Source of the DNA: an uncultured Rikenellaceae bacterium | GTDB lineage: Bacteria > Bacteroidota > Bacteroidia > Bacteroidales > Rikenellaceae | Length of the DNA stretch: 64,000 bases | Reading direction: 5' to 3' | NCBI GenBank assembly: GCA_944326945.1 | Contig: CALVFY010000008.1 | Coordinates: 9,994-73,993, forward strand | In this document: positions 36,004 to 50,640 of the stretch, piece after piece | How positions within the stretch are numbered: the first letter of the stretch is position 1 | How the letters are laid out: each line of letters starts with the position of its first letter | Notes under the pieces: generated by a model | The model's database searches: none | Told to the model about the DNA's origin: nothing | The model's input: the letters and a program-made list of their open reading frames with translations, nothing else | Program-made: the position numbers and the translations under genes

Positions 36004-37491
36004 ATGGATTGCAAAAATCATAAAGACGGCTGTTCGCTGGATATGGGGCGAGGATGCGAATTCTGCTGTAACGAAGGTGAGACAACGGCCCGGGCATGCG
36101 AAGGTTGTTACAAACTACACTCCACCAACTGGCTGGAAGGATATCCCGACAACTTTCCCGATGACATTTTCGAAGTCCGTTTCAAAAACACCCGTCGAAG
36201 CTATTATCGTAACGTCAACAATCTGCCACTCAAGCGAGGCGATATTGTAGCCGTAGAGGCTTCTCCGGGTCACGACATTGGAATTGTTTCCCTGACGGGA
36301 GATATGGTGGCCAAACAGATGAAACGCGTAGGTTTCAACCCCCTGAACGGCGAATTCAAAAAAATTTACCGAAAAGCCAAACCCTACGACATAGAGAAAT
36401 GGCAGGAAGCCATTGCATTGGAACACCAGACCATGATCCGTTCACGTCAGATAGCTGCCGAAATGGGTCTCAACATGAAGATCGGAGATGTCGAGTATCA
36501 AGGCGACAAGATCAAGGCCATCTTCTATTACATTGCCGACGAGAGAGTCGATTTCCGGGAACTGATCAAGGTTTTCGCCGAACAGTTCCGCATCCGGGTC
36601 GAGATGAAACAGATCGGCGCCCGACAAGAGGCCGGACGGATCGGAGGATTGGGTTCCTGCGGCAGACAGCTGTGTTGTTCGTCATGGATATCGAGTTTCG
36701 TATCGGTAACCACCAACGCAGCCCGTCACCAGGAGATCTCGCTCAATCCGCAGAAACTGGCCGGACAGTGCGGAAAACTGAAATGCTGTCTGATCTACGA
36801 ACTGGACACCTATATGGATGCCCGTAAAGAGATTCCCAAGATCAATCAACCGCTGCAGACGCTCGAGGGAGAATATCATCTGGTCAAAACCGATATTCTG
36901 GCCCGGACGATGAGTTTCAGCACGGCCCCCAATTCAATGGTAGGAGTAGTGACGCTCCCAGTAACACGTGTTAGAGAGATCATCGAGATCAACAAACGAG
37001 GAAAGAAAGTCGACAAACTGATCGAAATCGACTTGATGACCGCCCCCGAAGAGGAACCCGATTTCGTAAACGTGATCGGAGAGGAGAGTATCACCCGATT
37101 CGACAATAAAAAACGGGACGGGAAAAACAAAAACCGGAATCGAAACCGTTCCCGAGGGAATTCCCTCTCAGGCAATACTCCAGGAGAGAACGCCCCTAAA
37201 GGGAATAATAATCCTGCCGACAGTCGAACAGACAATACCCCCCCCCAACCCAATCCCAACAACAAAGGAAACGGCCGAAACAAAAACAGCAGGAACCGAG
37301 GCAACAACCGCCCGACAACAGACCAAAACCAGCATACAAATATCCCCACAGAAAGTGGGAACCGTCCGGATAACGACAACACCTCGGGTAACGAACGGCG
37401 CCCCCGTCCCAAACGGCATAAAAAACCGGGAAACCGGAATAATGGCAATCCAAAGACTCCCGAAAACGGAAACCCGACCAATCGCTCATGA
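36004..37491 (+). CDS. PSP1-domain (RicT/YaaT-like) protein with a long basic low-complexity C-terminal tail
   Basis: 495-aa ORF with a Cys-rich N-terminus. The PSP1 core has GDIVAVEASPGHDIGIVS...IKAIFYYIADERVDFRELIKVFAEQFRIRVEMKQIGARQEA...CGRQLCC. The last ~130 aa are N/R/P/G/K-rich. Confidence 0.75.
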   Translation: MDCKNHKDGCSLDMGRGCEFCCNEGETTARACEGCYKLHSTNWLEGYPDNFPDDIFEVRFKNTRRSYYRNVNNLPLKRGDIVAVEASPGHDIGIVSLTGDMVAKQMKRVGFNPLNGEFKKIYRKAKPYDIEKWQEAIALEHQTMIRSRQIAAEMGLNMKIGDVEYQGDKIKAIFYYIADERVDFRELIKVFAEQFRIRVEMKQIGARQEAGRIGGLGSCGRQLCCSSWISSFVSVTTNAARHQEISLNPQKLAGQCGKLKCCLIYELDTYMDARKEIPKINQPLQTLEGEYHLVKTDILARTMSFSTAPNSMVGVVTLPVTRVREIIEINKRGKKVDKLIEIDLMTAPEEEPDFVNVIGEESITRFDNKKRDGKNKNRNRNRSRGNSLSGNTPGENAPKGNNNPADSRTDNTPPQPNPNNKGNGRNKNSRNRGNNRPTTDQNQHTNIPTESGNRPDNDNTSGNERRPRPKRHKKPGNRNNGNPKTPENGNPTNRS

Positions 37492-39087: not shown

Positions 39088-39939
39088 TCACACAATCTTT
39101 TGATTGATATTACGGTACTGTTTCGGAGTAATACCATATATACGGTTGAATACACGATAGAAATATCCCAGATTGCGATAACCGCACTTGCAACAGATCT
39201 CTTTTATAGGCATACTGGTCATGGATAACTGACTTACGGCATAACGCATCTTCATTTCCAAAATAAGTGAGATCAAAGTCTTTCCCAGGCAACGTTTTAC
39301 CACACGATTTACATAATCCTCATTCCGGTTGCACAAAGAGACAAAATAGGATACTCCCTTGGTAAATGACTCGGGATTGTTATAGATCTTGATGGCATTG
39401 GCAAGCCACTCCGGGACATCAAGGAACTCCTCGATATGTACTTTCGAAACAATCTGCCGGAAAAGGAAAAGCAGAAAACTGTCCTGCTGGATAATGTTGC
39501 GTTCCTGTCTCATCAAATCCTCCGCCCTTGCAGATAGCCTCTTGAGAATGTCTTTGGAAAGGAAGGTATGAAACGGGACTATAGATTCAGTCCAAAAAAA
39601 GTCGGAGGATGTCTGAAAATAACGTTCCCTTAAAAAAGCGAGAGTCGACTTGGGGAAAGCTATATTCACCAGCGTCAATCCCTTTCCGAAAGAGGAAAAC
39701 GTATGAGTATCGTCAGGTCTTATCATATATAAGTCTCCGGCAGCAATCCGGACATCATGTCCGTTGACATGATGCACCCCCTCCCCGCATTCTATCCAGA
39801 ATATTTCCGAATAATCATGACAGTGATAGGTAAGGTCCTGTTTCGAAGTAATATTTACCCTTGCTATATGGAAAACTTCCCCGGCCCGAAGGAAGAAATC
39901 CAATGCAAATCTCTCGGCCATACTCCATTTTTTGCGCAA
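39088..39939 (-). CDS. AraC/XylS-family transcriptional regulator (N-terminal cupin sensor plus C-terminal double HTH)
   Basis: 283-aa ORF with an alternative start MAERF at 39921. The cupin part is HCHDYSEIFWIECGEGVHHVNG and the C-terminus is ICCKCGYRNLGYFYRVFNRIYGITPKQYR. It is divergent from the GRE operon. Confidence 0.85.
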   Translation of the reverse strand: MRKKWSMAERFALDFFLRAGEVFHIARVNITSKQDLTYHCHDYSEIFWIECGEGVHHVNGHDVRIAAGDLYMIRPDDTHTFSSFGKGLTLVNIAFPKSTLAFLRERYFQTSSDFFWTESIVPFHTFLSKDILKRLSARAEDLMRQERNIIQQDSFLLFLFRQIVSKVHIEEFLDVPEWLANAIKIYNNPESFTKGVSYFVSLCNRNEDYVNRVVKRCLGKTLISLILEMKMRYAVSQLSMTSMPIKEICCKCGYRNLGYFYRVFNRIYGITPKQYRNINQKIV

Positions 39940-40021
39940 AATTACATAAAAAGTCGGAATAAGATAAATAATCTACATTTTATCAAAATAAGTTCATCGC
40001 ATAAGGATAATAAATATAACA

Positions 40022-40029
40022 TAGCTTTG
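40022..40029 (+). promoter_or_regulatory. Candidate -7 promoter box (TAGCTTTG) for the GRE operon
   Basis: Matches TAnnTTTG, 14 nt upstream of the first in-frame ATG (40043). A later Met codon at 40076 (MTGTITTIQRMSIHDGPGIR) could be the real start. Confidence 0.35.
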
Positions 40030-40042
40030 TAAAGGAGTAAGT

Positions 40043-40969
40043 ATGATTTACGGACCTTTTCAAAACACTAATCCTATGACTGGTACAATAACCACTATAC
40101 AAAGGATGTCTATCCATGACGGTCCCGGAATCAGGTCTACCGTCTTTATGAAAGGATGCAACCTGAGGTGCAAATGGTGTCATAATCCGGAAACATGGAG
40201 TCGTGCAAAACAACTGCAACACATAGAATCGAAGTGTCTGCACTGTTTTTCATGTATTTCAGTATGTGAACAAAATGCCATTTCTTCCATTGAAAATCGC
40301 ATAAAGATAAACCATCAGGCATGCAATACTTGTGGCAAATGCTGTGAAAAATGCCCTTCGGAAGCCCTGTCGGCAATAGGACGGGAGGTGACGGCAGATT
40401 CTTTGACAGAAGAATTGGAAAAAGACAGGGTTTTCTACGAGACATCTTCCGGAGGAATTACAATATCCGGAGGAGAGCCCTTCATGCAGGCCGATTTTGT
40501 GATCGAACTGCTCGAACAATGCCAAAAAGAAGGATTGCATACTGCCATTGAAACCAACATGTCGATGCCCTGGGAATCCATATTCCCGGCCCTGTCTCAC
40601 ACAGACCTGTGGATGTGCGACCTGAAAGTATTTGATTCCGACAAACACAAATACTGGACAGGCGCGGGCAACGAAAGAATCATGGACAATTTGGCCAGAC
40701 TTGCCAAAACCGGAGCAGAAATGATAGTCAGAACTCCGGTAATTCCGGGTGTAAACGACAATGAATACGAAATAAAGAATATTTGCGGATTCCTGAAAAA
40801 AATCGGAGGCAATGTCAGATACGAACTGCTGAAATTCCACAATCTCGGTTTCGGAAAATTCGACAACCTGGGTATGACCAATGAAATGGACGCATCAGCC
40901 CATTTGGAAGACAGCACGTTTGAACAGCTGAATGAAATCGTCAAATCTAATTATTTCCCAAAACCATGA
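40043..40969 (+). CDS. Glycyl-radical enzyme activating protein (radical SAM, with two auxiliary ferredoxin-like clusters)
   Basis: 308-aa ORF with HDGPGIRSTVFMKGCNLRCKWCHNPE (the CX3CX2C radical SAM motif). It also has CLHCFSCISVC and CNTCGKCCEKCP (CX2CX2CX3C type). The SAM-binding region GGITISGGEP is present. Confidence 0.9.
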   Translation: MIYGPFQNTNPMTGTITTIQRMSIHDGPGIRSTVFMKGCNLRCKWCHNPETWSRAKQLQHIESKCLHCFSCISVCEQNAISSIENRIKINHQACNTCGKCCEKCPSEALSAIGREVTADSLTEELEKDRVFYETSSGGITISGGEPFMQADFVIELLEQCQKEGLHTAIETNMSMPWESIFPALSHTDLWMCDLKVFDSDKHKYWTGAGNERIMDNLARLAKTGAEMIVRTPVIPGVNDNEYEIKNICGFLKKIGGNVRYELLKFHNLGFGKFDNLGMTNEMDASAHLEDSTFEQLNEIVKSNYFPKP

Positions 40970-43101
40970 ACCGTTTCGATGAACGAATAGCCAGGCTCAG
41001 AGCCAGGAAATTAGCCCAAACAGAAGAAAAAAGAAAAATAGAGGGCGTACTTGATGAAGACGACTACGGCAGAATCGTTCCGCCTAAAGGTCTGTGGGAA
41101 CCAATGCCCAATTCTCCCGATGGCTCTTTTTACGGCTTCAAGGGATGGACGGACAACTTTTGTTCCCTGATGGATGTCCACCCTGTATATGTGGATGCAG
41201 ATGATGCCTTTACAGGCAGATGGATGTACTTCATGTCCAGAATGAGAAAAAACAAATGGAATCCCGATTATCCATACACTCATCTTGAAAAGGACATCGA
41301 AAAATACGATATTATCTGTGGCATCGGTGACGACGCCCACTTCGCCCCTGACTACAAGATGGGCGTAAGTCTCGGTTGGGGTGGTTTAATCGAGAAAATA
41401 GAAAAATACAAAACACTGAACAACAGCGCAGAGCAAAAGGAGTTTTATGACATTCACCTGCGTGCAATCCACAGTATCCAGGGATGGATGAAACGTCACA
41501 TAGAAAAATCCCTGGCAATGGCGGCAGAAGAATCTGACGAATGGAAACGCAACAATCTGCTGGCTCAGGCAGCAGTCAATAAAAACATATTGAACGCGGC
41601 ACCTACGACCCTTCGCGAAGCCTGCCAGTGGATAATCTGGTATCACCTGGCCTCAAGAACATACAATAGAGACGGTGCCGGCGGACAAATCGACAGTCTG
41701 CTCCAACCGTTCTATGAAAACGACTTGAAAAATGGTATCATTGACAGGGATACCGCGGTATACTATCTTGCATGTTTCCTTATCAACGATCCTATCTACT
41801 GGCAGTTGGGAGGCCCTGACAGAAACGGCAACGACCAGACATCTGAAATTTCATACCTCATTCTGGATGCCGCGGACAAGATAAACACCTCTCTGAATAT
41901 TACGATCAGAGTACACGACGGCCTGGATAAGAAGTTGTTTGACAAGGCTGTAGGCTATCTCGTAAAGAACAAGAATGGATGGCCGAGATTCTCCGGCGAC
42001 AAGGCTTTAGTGGAAGGATTCATGAGAAACGGATATTCCAAAGAGCTGGCTTTAGAAAGGATTGCCGTCGGATGCAACTGGATGTCATTGCCGGGTCTGG
42101 AATACACAATGAATGACTTGGTAAAGGTCAATATGGCCAAAGTATTTGAAGTCGCTCTGTACGAAACGCGTGAAAGTGAAAACATATGCACGGAATCTAT
42201 TTGGAATGCCTTTACAAAGCATCTTCAAATAGCAGTTCACACGGCTGCAGAGGGCATAAGACATCATTTGAAATATCAGAAATACAACGAACCGGAACTT
42301 CTGCTCAACCTTTTGAGTCATGGTCCTCTTGAAAAGGGGAAAGACGCATCCGACGGAGGTGCCCAATACTACAATCTGGCCATTGACGGAGCCGGACTGG
42401 CCATTGTTGCCGATTCCTTTGCTGCAATGGAAAGACATATTGAAGAACAACACGAAATCTCGTGGGGAGAACTGTTCTCCGCTTTGGAAAATGACTTCAC
42501 CGGAGATCAACACGAAAACACCAGAAGAATACTTAGAAAGACTGACAGATTTGGCAAGGAAAATTCCTGCGGTGAAAAATGGGCTGTCAGAATAAAGGAC
42601 TGCTTCACAGACATCGTCCGCAATGAATCAGAACCTGGCAAGTGTTTCATTCCCGGATTCTTTTCATGGGCCAACACGGTCGGATTCGGCAAAACCGTCG
42701 GAGCGACACCCGACGGACGACATGCCCGTAAACCTATTTCCCATGGAGCGAACCCTTCTCCGGGTTTTGTTTCCGACGGAGCGTCACTTTCACTGGCGAA
42801 GGCCGTTGCCAAAATCCAGCCCGGATACGGAAACACGGCACCGATGCAGTGGGAGCTGGATCCCACATTTGCCATGAGCAGCAACATTGAAATCATAGAG
42901 GCCATAATAAAAGCTCATTTTGAATTGGGGGGAACACTGATCAATGTGAACATAATGGATAAGGAAAAGATCTTGGAAGCCCATCGGAATCCGGACAAAT
43001 ATCCAGATCTTGTTGTCAGAGTCACCGGATTTACCGCATATTTTTCGATGTTGTCTCCTGAATTCCGCCAACTTGTCGTAGACAGACTCCTGGTAAGCTA
43101 A
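40966..43101 (+). CDS. Glycyl radical enzyme of the PFL-like fold, unassigned subfamily (711 aa)
   Basis: The start overlaps the activase stop (ATGA). The C-terminal glycyl-radical motif is DLVVRVTGFTAYFSMLSPEFRQLVVDRL, with Gly688 at 43027-43029. GATPDGRHARKPISHGANPSPG lies upstream. The candidate thiyl Cys370 is in ERIAVGCNWMSLPG (42073-42075), 318 residues before the Gly. Confidence 0.85.
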   Translation: MNRFDERIARLRARKLAQTEEKRKIEGVLDEDDYGRIVPPKGLWEPMPNSPDGSFYGFKGWTDNFCSLMDVHPVYVDADDAFTGRWMYFMSRMRKNKWNPDYPYTHLEKDIEKYDIICGIGDDAHFAPDYKMGVSLGWGGLIEKIEKYKTLNNSAEQKEFYDIHLRAIHSIQGWMKRHIEKSLAMAAEESDEWKRNNLLAQAAVNKNILNAAPTTLREACQWIIWYHLASRTYNRDGAGGQIDSLLQPFYENDLKNGIIDRDTAVYYLACFLINDPIYWQLGGPDRNGNDQTSEISYLILDAADKINTSLNITIRVHDGLDKKLFDKAVGYLVKNKNGWPRFSGDKALVEGFMRNGYSKELALERIAVGCNWMSLPGLEYTMNDLVKVNMAKVFEVALYETRESENICTESIWNAFTKHLQIAVHTAAEGIRHHLKYQKYNEPELLLNLLSHGPLEKGKDASDGGAQYYNLAIDGAGLAIVADSFAAMERHIEEQHEISWGELFSALENDFTGDQHENTRRILRKTDRFGKENSCGEKWAVRIKDCFTDIVRNESEPGKCFIPGFFSWANTVGFGKTVGATPDGRHARKPISHGANPSPGFVSDGASLSLAKAVAKIQPGYGNTAPMQWELDPTFAMSSNIEIIEAIIKAHFELGGTLINVNIMDKEKILEAHRNPDKYPDLVVRVTGFTAYFSMLSPEFRQLVVDRLLVS

Positions 43102-43134
43102 AGCAGCGTAAACACATAAAAAACACTGAAAAAA

Positions 43135-43551
43135 ATGGAACTGATTGAAAAATACAGTTATAACGGGAGCGGATACGACCCATTCCTGATAAGCGACAAC
43201 TGGCAGATTGCCATTCTGAACTATGCAGAGGCTGACAACATAGACTCAATATACAATTTGGATATTCACCATGAGACAGACGAAGCTTTCATGCTTATCC
43301 AGGGAGACATCGTCCTTATAAGCGCCTCAATAGAAGGCACTGATGTTTCTTTTGAGAATGTCAAGTTGGAACCGGGAATTGTATACAACATACCGAAGAA
43401 TGTATGGCACAAGGTTGCCACAACACCCGGCAGCAGCGTACTGATTATAGAAAAAGCCAATACCCACCTCGACGACTTTGAATTCCACGACCTTAATGAA
43501 AAACAAATCGCCGAACTGAGAAAAGACGTAAAATCAAAATTAAATAAATAA
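43135..43551 (+). CDS. Small cupin-fold protein of unknown function
   Basis: 138-aa ORF with cupin-like motifs: DIHHETDEAFMLIQGD (H-H-E...G) and EPGIVYNIPKNVWHKV (P-x-G...H). It sits between the GRE and the UroD-fold gene. Confidence 0.5.
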   Translation: MELIEKYSYNGSGYDPFLISDNWQIAILNYAEADNIDSIYNLDIHHETDEAFMLIQGDIVLISASIEGTDVSFENVKLEPGIVYNIPKNVWHKVATTPGSSVLIIEKANTHLDDFEFHDLNEKQIAELRKDVKSKLNK

Positions 43552-43557
43552 GCAATT

Positions 43558-44589
43558 ATGAACGGATATACAAGATGCCTGAAGGCTTTGAATTGGGAAA
43601 AGCCTGACCGAATACCGGTTATACCTCAGAACTCGGACATGTCGATTCACCTTTCCGGATATGGCATGAAAGAATGTCTGTATGACGGGAAAAAACTGGC
43701 AAACGCACTGCTCAGTGCACAAGAAAAAATGGGTTACGACGGCATTATGATTGGACCTGACGCCTCTATTCTGGCAGAAGCCACAGGATGTGAAGTAGAC
43801 TACAGAGATGACGATCCTCCTGCCGTTACCGCTCCAATCCTGACCCGCCTGGATGAGGTTGACAAACTGGAGGTGCCTGATTTAAGCAAAAATCAAAGGA
43901 TCAAAGCCTGGCTGGATGCCACAAAAGCCATCATAGAAAAGACCAAAGGCGAAATATTTGTAATTTGCCGTGCCGATCAAGGTGCATTTTCACTGGCATC
44001 CTTGTTGAGAGGCAGCCAGGAATTCATGATAGATCTTGCAATGGGAGAACAGCCGAAACAAGTCAAAAAACTGTTGGATTTTTCGAATAAACTCCACATA
44101 CAGTTTGCCGGCCTGATCAAAGAAAGCGGAGCACATGCCACCACTTGCGGAGACGCATACTGCGGACCCGGCCTGATAAGCCCTGAAATGTACAGGGAAT
44201 ACGCCCTCCCTTATCAGAAAGAGGCTGTAAAGGAAATTCAGGACAGAATGAAGTTGCCCTACTCCATACATATTTGCGGTGTAACGGATAAAATACACGA
44301 CTGTTGGCCTGATACCGACGCTAAATTCTTTGAAGTGGATCATTGTACGGATATAGTGTCGCTTAGGAAGAAAACGTATGGCAAGACCTCTCTTTTCGGA
44401 AACATAAATACGTCTTCTCTGTGCTTTTCATCTCCGGAAGAGATCAAAACAGAATGCAACGAATTGTTCGATAAAATTAACCCGTCAACCGGATTTATTC
44501 TGAGTTCCGGGTGCAGCATGTCAGCCAATTCAAAGACAGAAAATGTCATTGCCATGATGGAAGCTGCAAAAGAATATGCAATCAGATAA
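43558..44589 (+). CDS. Uroporphyrinogen-decarboxylase (URO-D) fold protein of the MtaA/MT2-like methyltransferase branch
   Basis: 343-aa ORF. The N-terminus CLKALNWEKPDRIPVIP...MGYDGIMIGPDASILAEATGCEV is typical of URO-D family members. The pattern H238-x-C240 (SIHICG, 44269-44277) plus C319 (SSGCS, 44512-44514) resembles the H-x-C-x(n)-C zinc site of MT2 enzymes. Confidence 0.75.
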   Translation: MNGYTRCLKALNWEKPDRIPVIPQNSDMSIHLSGYGMKECLYDGKKLANALLSAQEKMGYDGIMIGPDASILAEATGCEVDYRDDDPPAVTAPILTRLDEVDKLEVPDLSKNQRIKAWLDATKAIIEKTKGEIFVICRADQGAFSLASLLRGSQEFMIDLAMGEQPKQVKKLLDFSNKLHIQFAGLIKESGAHATTCGDAYCGPGLISPEMYREYALPYQKEAVKEIQDRMKLPYSIHICGVTDKIHDCWPDTDAKFFEVDHCTDIVSLRKKTYGKTSLFGNINTSSLCFSSPEEIKTECNELFDKINPSTGFILSSGCSMSANSKTENVIAMMEAAKEYAIR

Positions 44590-44785
44590 GTTCTTCCACG
44601 GTTTTCAGAACAAAATGTCTCCATGGCGAAGTGCTTCTCTTCAACAGAGGGGCACTTCACCCCCTTGAATTACTGCACAATACATTCCCGATACAAGTAT
44701 TTTAACTTGAACAAAGCTGAAGTTCGATGCAAGTTTTTGAAAAGGTCCGACACAATATAAGTTCGTATAATAATTCTATCATAGA

Positions 44786-45934
44786 ATGAAGAATATGGCA
44801 AAATTATTACCGATATTACTCTCATTCTACGTAATGGGGTTTGTAGACATGGTTGGTGTCTCAACGAGTTATGTAAAACAAGACTTTTCGTTGAGCGATA
44901 CGTTAGCCAACCTGCTGCCGATGTTGGTATTTCTTTGGTTTGCGGTCTGTTCCTTACCCGCGGGCATGTTGACAGGGAAAATTGGACGTAAAAAAACAGT
45001 CTTGTTAAGTACGGTAGTGACGTTCGTAGCCATGCTGTTACCCATTATCCACTATTCGTATGCAGTCATATTGCTGTCGTTTGCCTGTTTGGGTATAGGC
45101 AATACCATACTTCAGGTCTCCTTAAATCCGTTATTGGCCAGCATAGTCAATCCGTCGAAACTGACAAGTATGTTATCTTTGGGAACTTTTATCAAAGCCA
45201 TCGCCTCCATGGGCAGTCCTCTGATTTTGGGTTTTGCCGTCAGTCTGACCGGTAAATGGCAGTGGATATTCCCCATCTATTCCGGTATCACTTTGCTGTC
45301 TGCCGTGTGGTTGTGGGCCACCCCGTTTGAAGAAACTATCGTGGAAACCAAGAGACATTCTTTTGTTTCGATTATAGCATTGTTGAAAAATTCGTTTTTA
45401 TTACAATGCTTTTTAGCCATTGTCTTGAGTGTAGGCTTTGAAATAGGATTGATGACTGCTGTCCCCACGTTTCTGTTTGAACGCTTCGAAATGCCCCTGG
45501 AACAGGGAGGAATGGGATGCAGCCTTTACTATCTTGCACGTATGTCAGGGACCTTTATCGGCTCCATTGTTTTAGCGAAGATATCTCCATTCCGCTTTAT
45601 CCGTTGGAACTTATTGGCAGCTCTACTGTCTTTTGTCACATTTGTTGTGTCGCCGAATACGACAGGATGTTTGGTCTCCCTGTTCTTGTTGGGTCTCTGC
45701 TGTGCCAATATTTTCCCCATCATGTTCTCCGCGGCTTTGCAGCACTCTCCGGAAAACACCGACAACCTCTCCGCACTGATGATCATGGGCATAGCCGGAG
45801 GGGCCGTTTTACCTATGATAATGGGCGCAGTCGCAGATATGAGCAATCAAACGGTCAGCCTGATTGTGCCGTTCCTGGCTTTAGTATACATATATTATGT
45901 GGCTATATCCCAAAAGGATATATGCAAGAGGTGA
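44786..45934 (+). CDS. MFS transporter resembling the fucose/galactose/glucose:H+ symporter (FHS) family
   Basis: 382-aa polytopic ORF with the N-terminus FYVMGFVDMVGVSTSYVKQDFSLSDTLANLLPMLVFLWFAVCSLPAGMLTGKIGRKKT, which is FucP/GlcP-like. Confidence 0.75.
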   Translation: MKNMAKLLPILLSFYVMGFVDMVGVSTSYVKQDFSLSDTLANLLPMLVFLWFAVCSLPAGMLTGKIGRKKTVLLSTVVTFVAMLLPIIHYSYAVILLSFACLGIGNTILQVSLNPLLASIVNPSKLTSMLSLGTFIKAIASMGSPLILGFAVSLTGKWQWIFPIYSGITLLSAVWLWATPFEETIVETKRHSFVSIIALLKNSFLLQCFLAIVLSVGFEIGLMTAVPTFLFERFEMPLEQGGMGCSLYYLARMSGTFIGSIVLAKISPFRFIRWNLLAALLSFVTFVVSPNTTGCLVSLFLLGLCCANIFPIMFSAALQHSPENTDNLSALMIMGIAGGAVLPMIMGAVADMSNQTVSLIVPFLALVYIYYVAISQKDICKR

Positions 45935-46081
45935 CTTCATTAGATACCGTATGACAGTTCCTCGCGGAGAGACTCCGGACGGACATTCCTCTGCGCCAAC
46001 AGATGGGTCGGTTTATAAAGGGATATATCAATATGTTTTCTAAAAAACCACATCATCTATTTCTTTTTTTAACCATTTAGG

Positions 46082-46089
46082 TATCTTTG
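46082..46089 (+). promoter_or_regulatory. Candidate -7 promoter box (TATCTTTG) upstream of the aldo/keto reductase
   Basis: Matches TAnnTTTG, 46 nt upstream of the ATG at 46135. Confidence 0.35.
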
Positions 46090-46134
46090 TATCATTATTG
46101 CATATCTTTCTGTTGTCATAAAAAACGTCCGGTT

Positions 46135-46992
46135 ATGAAATTGAAATCGCTGCAAGACACCTATTCACTCTGTAACGGGAACAAAATACCTTGCGTAGGA
46201 TTCGGGACTTTTCTCACTCCGGAGGGAAGCACTACCGTCAATTCTGTCAAGGAAGCGCTTCGCGTAGGCTATCGGCTGATCGATACTGCCGCCATCTACG
46301 GAAACGAACGAAGCGTGGGTCAAGCTATTCGCGAAAGCGGCGTCGGCCGCGACGAAATCTTCGTCACCAGCAAACTGTGGAACCGGGACCAGGGATATGA
46401 ATCGACTCTGGAAGCCTTCGATCGGACAATGAACGCCCTGGGGATGGACTATCTCGACCTCTATCTGATCCACTGGCCCATCGGCAAAGGTCACGAACAC
46501 GATTGGGCCGAGATGAATCGCGAAACCTGGCGAGCCATGGAAAAACTCTATCGCGACGGATATATCGGGGCCATCGGGGTAAGTAATTTCATGCCTCATC
46601 ATATCGAATCGTTGATGGTGACCGCAACGATTGCCCCTATGGTCGACCAAATCGAAATCCATCCGGGCCTCAACCATACCCAAGCCGTAGAGTACTGTCA
46701 ATCCCACGACATTGCCGTAGAGGCATGGGGTCCGCTCTCCCAAGGTCATCTTTCCGAAATGCCTGCCTTGAATGAAATTGCCGAACGCCACGGCAAAACG
46801 GTCGCCCAGATCTGTCTGCGTTGGCATCTGCAAAGAGGAATCATTCCTCTTCCCAAATCGGTTACCCCTTCGCGGATCGAAGAGAACAGTCGTATTTTCG
46901 ATTTCGAACTGACGCCCCGGGAGATGGAATTCATCGGTCAGATAAACGGACCTGTCGGGTCGGGAGCCGATCCGGATAAAGTGGCCCACTAA
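46135..46992 (+). CDS. Aldo/keto reductase (2,5-diketo-D-gluconate reductase-like)
   Basis: The ORF opens at 46087, but the likely start is MKLKSLQDTY at 46135. AKR motifs are present: GFGTF, DTAAIYGNE, SKLWN, LDLYLIHWP, IGVSNF and IPKS. Confidence 0.9.
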   Translation: MKLKSLQDTYSLCNGNKIPCVGFGTFLTPEGSTTVNSVKEALRVGYRLIDTAAIYGNERSVGQAIRESGVGRDEIFVTSKLWNRDQGYESTLEAFDRTMNALGMDYLDLYLIHWPIGKGHEHDWAEMNRETWRAMEKLYRDGYIGAIGVSNFMPHHIESLMVTATIAPMVDQIEIHPGLNHTQAVEYCQSHDIAVEAWGPLSQGHLSEMPALNEIAERHGKTVAQICLRWHLQRGIIPLPKSVTPSRIEENSRIFDFELTPREMEFIGQINGPVGSGADPDKVAH

Positions 46993-49455: not shown

Positions 49456-50640
49456 CTATTTATTTTTCGAGGAAATATACTCCACACTCATATTGATCAC
49501 AAGCGTGATAAAGAACAGAATAACGCCCAACAGGAAAAGAGCCTGATAGTGAGACCCTCCGGCAGGAGCTTCGCCCAATTCGGCGGCAATCGTGGCGGGA
49601 ATGGTCCGCAAGGGCTCCAAAATCGAAGTAGGAATCACTGCGGCATTTCCAGTGACCATCAATACGGCCATTGTCTCACCAACAGCCCGTCCGATTCCGA
49701 GCACCACGCCGGATGTAATACCCGACATCGAAGCGGGAATCACCACCCGATAGATTGTTTGCCAACGGGTGGCCCCCAACGCCAAACTTGCTTCCCGAAG
49801 CGATCGGGGACAACTGCGCATGGCATCCTCTGCCACGGTAATCATGGTCGGCAGGGCCATAATGGCCAACACGATACTTCCGGCCAATCCGCTCTCCCCC
49901 ACCGGCAAATCAAATCCCTGCTGCAGGAGAGGCACAATGACAATCAATCCGAAAAAGCCGTAGACCACCGAGGGAATACCATTCAACAGTTCGATCACCG
50001 GTTTGAGAATACTTCTCATCCGCTCCGAAGCCACCTCAGACATATAGATGGCCACACTGAGTCCGAACGGCAGAGCAAACAGAATGGCGAAAAGACTTAC
50101 CCACAACGTTCCCGCCAACAGAGGCAACATACCAAACAATGGAGCTGGAGTTGCCGTCGGAAACCATTCCGCACCGGCAAATACTTCGGCCGGAGAGATA
50201 GTCCGGTCTTCGATATAATGCAGATCAGCCTCCTCGGGAATCATCACCCGAGGCACGAAAGCGATCGCTCCCGGATGCTCTTCGACCCATCCTACGATTG
50301 CCTCTCCGGCCCTTTCGTACTGAGGACCCAACTCCTCTTCCGAGAAATAACGATCCACATCCTCCAAACGAAAAGTCTCGATCGGCAGATCGGGTCCACC
50401 TACTTCTTTCCAATTGGCGATATCTTCGTCGAATACTCCCTTGATCTGCTCGGCAGTCAACCGACTCACCGGATTCTCCTTGTTAAGAGCCAACACATAT
50501 CCCTCTTCGATGACACGTCCCCGGAACAACCCGGCCCCCTCCGTAAAAAGGAATCCGATAATCAGCAAAATAACTATACTGGTGACGAATCCGCTACCGG
50601 TCAACACCCATTGTACGATTTTTTCAAACAACTTTCTCAT
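49456..50640 (-). CDS. pstC: Phosphate ABC transporter permease PstC (with an extended periplasmic insert)
   Basis: 394-aa ORF with the loop EASLALGATRWQTIYRVVIP. It lies between pstS and pstA. Confidence 0.9.
   Translation of the reverse strand: MRKLFEKIVQWVLTGSGFVTSIVILLIIGFLFTEGAGLFRGRVIEEGYVLALNKENPVSRLTAEQIKGVFDEDIANWKEVGGPDLPIETFRLEDVDRYFSEEELGPQYERAGEAIVGWVEEHPGAIAFVPRVMIPEEADLHYIEDRTISPAEVFAGAEWFPTATPAPLFGMLPLLAGTLWVSLFAILFALPFGLSVAIYMSEVASERMRSILKPVIELLNGIPSVVYGFFGLIVIVPLLQQGFDLPVGESGLAGSIVLAIMALPTMITVAEDAMRSCPRSLREASLALGATRWQTIYRVVIPASMSGITSGVVLGIGRAVGETMAVLMVTGNAAVIPTSILEPLRTIPATIAAELGEAPAGGSHYQALFLLGVILFFITLVINMSVEYISSKNK

Follow-up and report, generated by a model that had tools for sequence, protein, structure and literature searches.

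Glycyl radical enzymes (GREs) are the main route by which strict anaerobes carry out chemically hard reactions without oxygen, and new GRE classes, such as the choline lyase, the hydroxyproline dehydratase, the sulfonate lyases and the anhydro-sugar isomerases, have each exposed a previously unknown metabolic route in the gut or the environment. Here we describe a GRE gene from an uncultured Rikenellaceae bacterium, which lies in a stretch of 64,000 nucleotides (GenBank assembly GCA_944326945.1, contig CALVFY010000008.1, positions 9,994 to 73,993 of the forward strand; hereafter the window) and codes for a protein with a tryptophan two residues after its putative radical cysteine, a position that we refer to as Cys+2. 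The reading that we favour, and to which we give somewhat better than an even chance, is that this is a functional, activase-dependent GRE of an uncharacterised monophyletic branch marked by the motifs C-x-W and R-V-T-G, and that it acts on a carbohydrate-derived molecule.

According to a June 2026 review GREs fall into seven classes, among which all 1,2-eliminases and all three isomerases (HplG, YbiW and PflD) keep a C-x-E motif with the Glu bound to a substrate hydroxyl, and a Cys-Cys pair, both members of which are essential, is exclusive to PFL and TdcE. As regards the decarboxylases, the same review places Glu505 of HPAD two residues past Cys503, gives Glu502 of IAD as the proposed proton donor and describes Gln484 of PAD as essential. 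The C-x-Q loops of representative sequences suggest that this Gln occupies Cys+2, in which case PAD would be an example of this position varying along with the chemistry. PAD/PhdB is thus a characterised GRE which, like the C-x-W GRE, apparently has no Glu at Cys+2, but the residue is Gln rather than Trp and the substrate is an aromatic acid.

The best PDB sequence matches of our enzyme are PflD and YbiW (PDB 8YJO, 8ID0 and 8ID7; E 4e-53 and 7e-50), to which both the Cys and the Gly loop align and whose folds match its predicted structure with TMq 0.81-0.85 at 19-21% identity. These enzymes convert 1,5-anhydromannitol-6-P and 1,5-anhydroglucitol-6-P to 1-deoxyfructose-6-P, Glu433 or Glu443 of the C-x-E motif deprotonating the C2 hydroxyl, and they resemble the C-x-W GRE both in being sugar-metabolising and in having a single Cys. 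The C-x-W GRE however has Trp in place of this Glu, is 50-100 residues shorter and lacks their phosphotransferase system (PTS) or aldolase context, and since permeases and not a PTS are encoded, its substrates are, unlike theirs, likely unphosphorylated.

The radical loops and fold of the enzyme

The gene is a complete open reading frame (ORF), ATG through stop, and its product belongs to the PFL-like GRE superfamily, having a PFL-like domain (PF02901, E 6e-97) and a C-terminal glycyl radical domain with the RVxG motif (Gly_radical, PF01228, E 4.5e-13). The gene and its two radical loops are located as follows.

40966..43101, plus strand: GRE, 711 residues, member of the C-x-W clade by Pfam domains, alignment, model and tree
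42055..42096, plus strand: Cys loop ERIAVGCNWMSLPG, residues 364-377, with Cys370 at 42073-42075 and Trp372 at 42079-42081
43015..43044, plus strand: Gly loop VRVTGFTAYF, residues 684-693, with Gly688 at 43027-43029

An earlier reading made from the sequence before any database search (the sequence-only reading) had proposed that the Gly loop is canonical, that the thiyl radical forms on Cys370, 318 residues upstream of Gly688, and that the Cys loop has neither the Cys-Cys pair of PFL nor the Glu of C-x-E, and all of these proposals are supported. The ORF coordinates give the same spacing of 318 residues, and in an alignment of 56 sequences extending down to 23% identity only eight columns are invariant, those of Cys370 and Gly688 among them. 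Cys370 is furthermore the only one of the nine cysteines to be invariant, and in HMMER alignments it stands opposite the catalytic Cys of the PflD enzymes of E. coli (VGCVELSIPG) and S. dysgalactiae, and opposite that of HypD. The loop reads G-C-N-W, Val-Gly preceding Cys370 and Asn following it, and Trp372 pairs with the Cys+2 Glu of both PflD proteins and of HypD. No second conserved Cys in the neighbourhood of a Glu, which might be the active-site residue instead, occurs in the same 56 sequences. Assignment as an AARE, in which Ala, Ser or Thr replaces the radical Gly, was likewise rejected, Gly688 being present and invariant.

The structure prediction that the sequence-only reading had called for is in agreement with these assignments. 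An AlphaFold2 model built on the 56-sequence alignment has a mean pLDDT of 93.6 and a pTM of 0.93; DSSP assigns residues 368-372 of the model to a hairpin turn between strands 366-367 and 373-374, and residues 687-688 to the turn joining strands 683-686 and 689-692. Cys370 and Gly688 are thus each predicted at the tip of a β-hairpin, as is usual for the finger loops of GREs. In BSS and MASS the Cys Sγ and the Gly Cα are 3.95 and 4.02 Å apart (PMC12358834), and a van der Waals contact of about 4 Å, which is a mark of the superfamily, would likewise be expected between Cys370 and Gly688. Members of the superfamily are also known by a glycyl radical signal in EPR and by cleavage at the Gly that depends on oxygen, and our enzyme is accordingly expected to be oxygen-sensitive. 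Only GREs are found among the top matches of a Foldseek comparison of the model with the PDB, at 16-22% identity and with no preferred partner, propanediol dehydratase, PflD, HplG, glycerol dehydratase, CutC and HypD being among the top-ranked (TMq 0.82-0.86), and the model together with these matches places the protein among the 10-stranded β/α barrels.

The sequence-only reading had also called the protein unusually short, which is correct only in part. The solved GRE chains found in the PDB sequence search have 759-1150 residues, apart from one 687-residue exception that aligns over 54 residues only, and the 711-residue GRE is therefore shorter than every full-length solved GRE. However, uncharacterised GRE representatives of 649-734 residues with ordinary C-x-E loops are common, so the length alone is unremarkable. 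Nor did the supposition that N-terminal elements are missing survive comparison with the TIGR01774 profile, of which residues 122-707 cover positions 154-781, which corresponds to a shortfall of about 32 residues at the N-terminus and of about 42 inside the chain; gaps relative to C-x-E representatives follow residues 84, 100, 275 and 403. An absent N-terminal domain can thus be ruled out as the cause of the shortness, since the missing residues are distributed between the N-terminus and several scattered loops and no module is lost. The gap after residue 275 corresponds to the loss of a loop found in HypD, on which Ser334 and Phe340 are presumably substrate contacts.

C-x-W marks a deep clade

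The non-canonical Cys loop had been taken as a feature of this one protein. The C-x-W motif is indeed real, but sequence comparison identifies it as the signature of a deep monophyletic GRE clade and not as a quirk. A word-indexed search for close relatives gave over 120 clusters with identities of 68-82%, each of about 700-720 residues, and both radical loops are kept in all seven close relatives retrieved; RIAVGCNWMSLPG is invariant in these and the query, that is, in eight family members at 68-82% identity. The near-constant length of so many clusters and the retention of both loops in the relatives retrieved indicate strong purifying selection. An exhaustive HMMER search over 1.84 billion 50%-identity representatives furthermore yielded full-length relatives graded from 57% to about 25% identity, with the Cys-loop variants GCNW, GCHW, GCQW, GCFW, GCPW and GCGW and with the radical-Gly motif R-V-T-G in nearly all. 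A neighbour-joining tree comprising the query and 90 full-length representatives places the 24 full-length sequences with Trp at Cys+2 (25-57% identity) in a single clade devoid of non-W sequences; the remaining tree sequences have Glu (58), Gln (4), His (2) or a different residue (3) at this position, and the C-x-Q representatives are placed outside the C-x-W clade.

In the alignment Cys+2 is Trp in 100% of the C-x-W clade as against Glu in 12 of 12 C-x-E representatives, and since the Trp is fully conserved in a deep clade, it is apparently under selection and not drifting. Thr precedes the radical Gly (Thr687 here) in 22 of the 24 C-x-W sequences, whereas Ala or Ser is mostly found elsewhere, and the full set of clade-specific conserved residues comprises W138, W372, E444, L449, P563, N596, P626 and T687. 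Among the residues conserved in both the C-x-W and the C-x-E groups are H125 (His in 12/12 C-x-E representatives), D243 and D253, and D384 at Cys+14 is invariant in the C-x-W clade and acidic in 9/12 C-x-E representatives. By manual reading of the HypD alignment W568 stands opposite HypD Thr645, which we take to be an active-site residue; this is a lead only. The close family, of about 712 residues, is found in Bacteroidota, Bacillota, Spirochaetota and further phyla, and its members share about 70% identity inside Bacteroidota and more than 50% among at least four phyla.

Relation to characterised GREs

The Cys+2 residue was compared with that of characterised eliminases, isomerases, decarboxylases and PFL/TdcE. 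The eliminases (glycerol and propanediol dehydratases, HypD, CutC, IslA/IseG and HpsG) have the 10-stranded barrel (TMq 0.79-0.86) and the type of activase with a ferredoxin-like insert in common with the C-x-W GRE. The C-x-E that defines eliminases and isomerases is however absent, Trp372 being opposite the Glu, and the scores against the NCBIfam models for HypD (198 bits, cut-off 1100), HpsG/HpfG (187, cut-off 1000), CutC (157, cut-off 1050) and PFL2-3 (273, cut-off 678) all fall short. The X-succinate synthases, which are characterised by an α subunit of about 850 residues, β and γ iron-sulphur (FeS) subunits and, following the Cys loop, an Arg that binds fumarate, give TMq 0.78-0.79 to the model and weak partial sequence matches (BSS E 3e-13, MASS E 8e-17), neither spanning the Cys loop, and no genes for their accessory subunits were seen in the window.

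The implication of the sequence-only reading that no homologue of the same length and loop has an assigned function is borne out by NCBIfam, public names and literature. The NCBIfam equivalog scores are all 5- to 13-fold under cut-off, no specific NCBIfam model for C-x-W GREs was found, and the PDB holds no solved structure of a clade member, the best match (E 4e-53) having about 25% identity. The classes of the June 2026 review include neither a Trp-at-Cys+2 class nor a mannoside-linked GRE, and targeted literature searches, GRE papers from 2025 on included, returned no description of the C-x-W family. Homologues carry the generic public names 'formate acetyltransferase' and 'pyruvate formate lyase family protein', which are Pfam-domain transfers.

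The gene island

The GRE gene is part of an island at 39088-46992, which contains the following further genes.

39088..39939, minus strand: divergent AraC-family regulator with an AraC-type ligand-binding cupin and a helix-turn-helix domain, closest to the sugar-responsive ChbR, RhaR and RhaS
40043..40969, plus strand: GRE-activating radical SAM enzyme, 308 residues (TIGR02494, 356 bits against a cut-off of 174)
43135..43551, plus strand: small single-domain cupin, 138 residues, directly 3' of the GRE
43558..44589, plus strand: URO-D superfamily protein, MtaA/CmuA-like, 343 residues, with H-x-C...C (PF01208, E 9e-62)
44786..45934, plus strand: MFS transporter, 382 residues, weakly similar to the GluP (glucose/galactose) and FucP (fucose) permeases
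46087..46992, plus strand: DkgA-like aldo/keto reductase, the final gene of the island, with two possible starts

The co-encoded activase that had been noted from the sequence is thus recognised well above the TIGR02494 cut-off. Its Pfam domains are Radical_SAM, Fer4_12 and Fer4, the ferredoxin-like cluster insert being typical of non-PFL activases, and it scores under every NCBIfam equivalog cut-off, the HypD and HpsG activases being its best matches. Its stop overlaps the start of the GRE by four nucleotides (ATGA), the two genes are translationally coupled, and together with the TIGR02494 match and the presence of a homologue at 68 of 74 loci (see below) this identifies it as the cognate activase of the GRE.

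The invariant residues of the cupin include D43, H45, D49, E50, H92, E106 and H111, which suggests a metal site. Its AlphaFold2 model and sequence match CA_C3497 (PDB 3D0J; E 1e-17, TM 0.94 by Foldseek, 28% identity), and the PDB sequence and Foldseek searches otherwise returned generic cupins only; as 3D0J is without an assigned function, no functional lead is gained. The URO-D protein scores under the NCBIfam MtaA/CmuA cut-offs and keeps the zinc-type pattern (SIHICG, SSGCS). It is nearest to the MtaA/CmuA methylcobamide methyltransferases, yet the island has no corrinoid-protein gene. The aldo/keto reductase may start at TTG 46087 (301 residues) or ATG 46135 (285 residues), and public assemblies use the 285-residue form.

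The island is flanked by housekeeping genes, upstream for a Clp ATPase, MATE, PSP1, GldH and TrmB and downstream for PhoU-PstBAC, and the same operon is found on several independent metagenome contigs. Its GC content of 0.42-0.47, as against 0.49-0.52 in the flanks, is a mild hint of an accessory island, but the shift is too mild to be strong evidence for recent transfer. Among the flanking genes, that for the PSP1-domain protein (36004-37491, plus strand) codes for about 130 C-terminal residues of Asn/Arg/Pro/Gly-rich low complexity (NKNRNRNRSRGN..., PNPNNKGNGRNKNSRNRGNNRP...), and a PstC-like phosphate ABC permease (49456-50640, minus strand) has an N-terminal match to PBP_like_2 at residues 42-129; as this stretch matches a periplasmic phosphate-binding-protein domain, the permease may be a fusion.

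Gene neighbourhoods across genomes

When one genome per GTDB species was scanned, relatives turned up in 119 species, and the best 80 loci were taken, which belong to Bacteroidales, Alistipes, Marinilabiliales, Prolixibacteraceae, Flammeovirga, Paenibacillus, Clostridia, Sphaerochaeta, Fusobacteriaceae and Synergistaceae. Species that can be grown in culture are among those with a relative, namely Carboxylicivirga spp., Flammeovirga spp., Labilibaculum filiforme, Puteibacter caeruleilacunae, Paenibacillus sp. S150, Faecalispora jeddahensis and Chakrabartyella piscis. Neighbours within 10 kb were clustered and counted for 74 loci, namely the window and the 73 public loci with a called GRE ORF.

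Activase homologue: 68/74 loci
AraC regulator: 32/74, usually just 5' of the activase
Small cupin directly 3' of the GRE: 30/74, the most conserved non-activase partner
Any GH92, GH38 or GH47 α-mannosidase: 29/74, and 27/52 Bacteroidota-type loci
GH92: 18/74
RhaT-like permease: 18/74
SusC: 15/74
259-residue protein unrelated to the cupin (Bacillota): 11/74
PMI-like protein (Bacillota): 11/74
GH38: 10/74
MFS sugar transporter: 10/74
URO-D: 7/74
GH47: 6/74

Fewer loci have GH130, sialidase-like, DHDPS-like, AGE-family epimerase, sulfatase, TRAP, UxaC or Gfo/Idh/MocA genes, and SusC/D and ABC transporters are also among the neighbours of close-family GREs, in which the usual order is AraC, activase, GRE, small cupin and sugar transporter. 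A same-strand run in Prolixibacteraceae reads GH38, AGE-family epimerase, URO-D, MFS, GH38, activase, GRE, MFS, GH92, GH78-like and GH28, and the MFS gene co-occurs with the URO-D gene in loci of this family. Same-strand runs at L034 (1-22087), L040 and L027 (Prolixibacteraceae) form an unusually direct physical link between GRE and exo-glycosidase genes. In seven Bacillota loci (L064, L069, L070, L072, L074, L076 and L077) the GRE is followed by the 259-residue protein, which has no Pfam match, and by the PMI-like cupin protein; the notion that either of these neighbours (c7 and c9, respectively) is a divergent form of the partner cupin was rejected at an hhalign probability below 1%. TRAP transporter genes also lie nearby in Bacillota loci, in three of them together with UxaC, for which reason this subgroup may use a sugar-acid substrate.

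Distant C-x-W GREs are found in carbohydrate or organic-acid settings as well, with Gfo/Idh/MocA, SIS, a sugar ABC transporter and two URO-D genes (P0155), a sugar ABC transporter, an epimerase and β-helix proteins (P0157) and a TAXI-TRAP system (P0132). URO-D genes adjoin two distant C-x-W GREs and lie 7 kb from a third, that is, in three of about eight informative contexts. They flank distant C-x-W GREs at L083 and on the P0126 contig, the L083 proteins having 27-31% identity over half their length and no second Cys. A core partnership of URO-D with the GRE was rejected in view of the 7/74 close loci and the divergence of the L083 proteins, and we treat the URO-D gene as accessory. The roughly 8 kb read to either side of the distant C-x-W GREs on the P0126, P0165 and P0170 (L087) contigs contain no called activase gene, and genes for SAM-dependent methyltransferases recur nearby. 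At L021 a Bacteroidota-type operon (cupin, RhaT-like, GH92, GH28 and SusC) with a GRE copy of 70% identity occurs in a metagenome-assembled genome labelled Candidatus Paceibacterota, which is probably a binning error rather than a bacterium of the candidate phyla radiation with a polysaccharide utilization locus (PUL). The common denominator of the C-x-W loci is the uptake and catabolism of glycan-derived small molecules.

Proposed function

Judging by the gene context, the substrate is most likely a carbohydrate-derived molecule, and since the branch is conserved, unstudied and found in sugar-harvesting gene clusters, the C-x-W GRE probably performs an undescribed anaerobic carbohydrate reaction. 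As in other members of the family, the activase would install the radical on Gly688, which together with Cys370 is predicted to sit on two finger loops inside the 10-stranded barrel, and Cys370 would relay the radical and take a hydrogen atom from a sugar or sugar acid imported by the operon permease. Trp372 is at the position where the Glu of C-x-E hydrogen-bonds a substrate hydroxyl and may for that reason line the pocket, packing on the sugar ring being more likely than an acid/base role; possibly with Trp568 and Trp138, it would form an aromatic platform for a pyranose. Candidates for proton transfer, if needed, are His125, Asp236, Asp384 and the clade-specific Glu444. The product would probably be passed to the co-conserved small cupin, a putative metalloenzyme. 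Our best guess at the reaction is a redox-neutral rearrangement cleaving a C-O or C-C bond of a manno-configured or otherwise modified monosaccharide, a candidate substrate being one released by the neighbouring exo-glycosidases.

As all eliminases and isomerases keep C-x-E, a chemistry other than 1,2-elimination is plausible, although the base for a 1,2-elimination could come from elsewhere in the active site. A more far-reaching proposal, which we regard as tentative and rather doubtful, is that C-x-W defines a further functional GRE class that carries out a radical carbohydrate transformation without a described anaerobic enzyme, for example the O2-independent processing of a methyl-ether, deoxy, anhydro or uronic monosaccharide from α-mannosidase-rich PULs. 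In such a class a Trp-lined aromatic pocket would replace the Glu-assisted ketyl chemistry of the known eliminases and isomerases.

Several points weigh against the carbohydrate-active GRE that we favour. The role given to Trp372 derives from its alignment position only, and the context is heterogeneous, comprising mannosidase clusters, sialidase-type clusters and, in Bacillota, TRAP with UxaC. Furthermore, the cupin is absent from some loci, such as those of Prolixibacteraceae, and in Bacillota the 259-residue protein is found instead. The subgroups may accordingly differ in substrate, or they may share a downstream metabolite and not a directly released sugar.

Alternative explanations

The alternative that survives best, possible but in our view unlikely, is a classical 1,2-eliminase or isomerase, be it a dehydratase or a ring-opening enzyme of the PflD/YbiW type, that acts on a sugar with its base relocated to for example Asp384 or Glu444. 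PflD, propanediol dehydratase, HypD and YbiW, which match it best in sequence and fold, are all of this kind, His125 and Asp236 are kept, Cys+14 is acidic as in most C-x-E representatives, Glu444 is invariant and clade-specific, and the sugar context is compatible with sugar dehydration or isomerisation. Against this notion, every characterised eliminase or isomerase keeps C-x-E, whatever its substrate, the identity is only 18-22% with no partner preferred, and neither a PTS, a sugar kinase nor an aldolase of the anhydroglycolysis type is conserved beside the GRE.

It is less probable still that the enzyme is a GRE decarboxylase, like HPAD, IAD, PAD and AAD, which would act on a sugar acid or another carboxylated compound, perhaps together with the URO-D-family protein, and we think this improbable. 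Such a function would suit the TRAP and UxaC (glucuronate isomerase) genes flanking Bacillota members, the TAXI-TRAP system flanking P0132 and the recurrence of URO-D-family genes near C-x-W GREs, and of the characterised classes only the decarboxylases would vary between Glu and another residue at Cys+2, if Gln484 of PAD indeed occupies this position. It is however in poor agreement with the Bacteroidota loci, which have sugar-type permeases (RhaT-like, MFS Sugar_tr) and not acid transporters, and with the URO-D protein of the window, which resembles a Zn methyltransferase and not HemE and whose relatives occur at only the few close loci counted above. In addition, the scores against the decarboxylase equivalogs are very low (IAD 121 against 1100, HPAD 88 against 1150), Cys+2 is Trp, and no small Cys-rich ORF of the HPAD FeS subunit type is conserved beside the C-x-W GRE gene.

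That the protein is a formate C-acetyltransferase, i.e. a pyruvate or 2-ketobutyrate formate-lyase, is suggested by the public names of its homologues and by the Pfam domains and RVxG Gly-loop consensus that it has in common with PFL and TdcE, yet this is very improbable. The Cys-Cys pair essential in both enzymes is missing, the TIGR01255 formate-lyase equivalog gives 72 bits against a cut-off of 994 and matches the C-terminus only, PFL structures likewise align with just the 140 C-terminal residues (569-708), and the operon contains sugar genes and no genes of the pta/ack type; the annotation 'formate acetyltransferase' on C-x-W genes is wrong. Least probable of all is that the protein is a GRE homologue that has degenerated or lost catalysis, for instance a pseudoenzyme or a protein for radical storage. 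The loss of the catalytic Glu may be read as decay, but both loops are invariant across phyla, an activase of its own lies beside the GRE gene at nearly all loci, a full-length model of high confidence was obtained, and conservation of the Trp in the deep clade is 100%. Both PFL activity and a pseudoenzyme can be regarded as effectively excluded.

Significance

With its conservation across phyla, its swap of the residue that eliminases and isomerases keep and its location in glycan-degradation operons, the C-x-W clade is a well-defined target, whose study may uncover a radical reaction on sugars not described before, along with a step so far missing from the anaerobic breakdown of glycans. If C-x-W indeed represents a further GRE class, the radical chemistry of these enzymes would have a direct link to the way in which gut and marine Bacteroidota forage for glycans.

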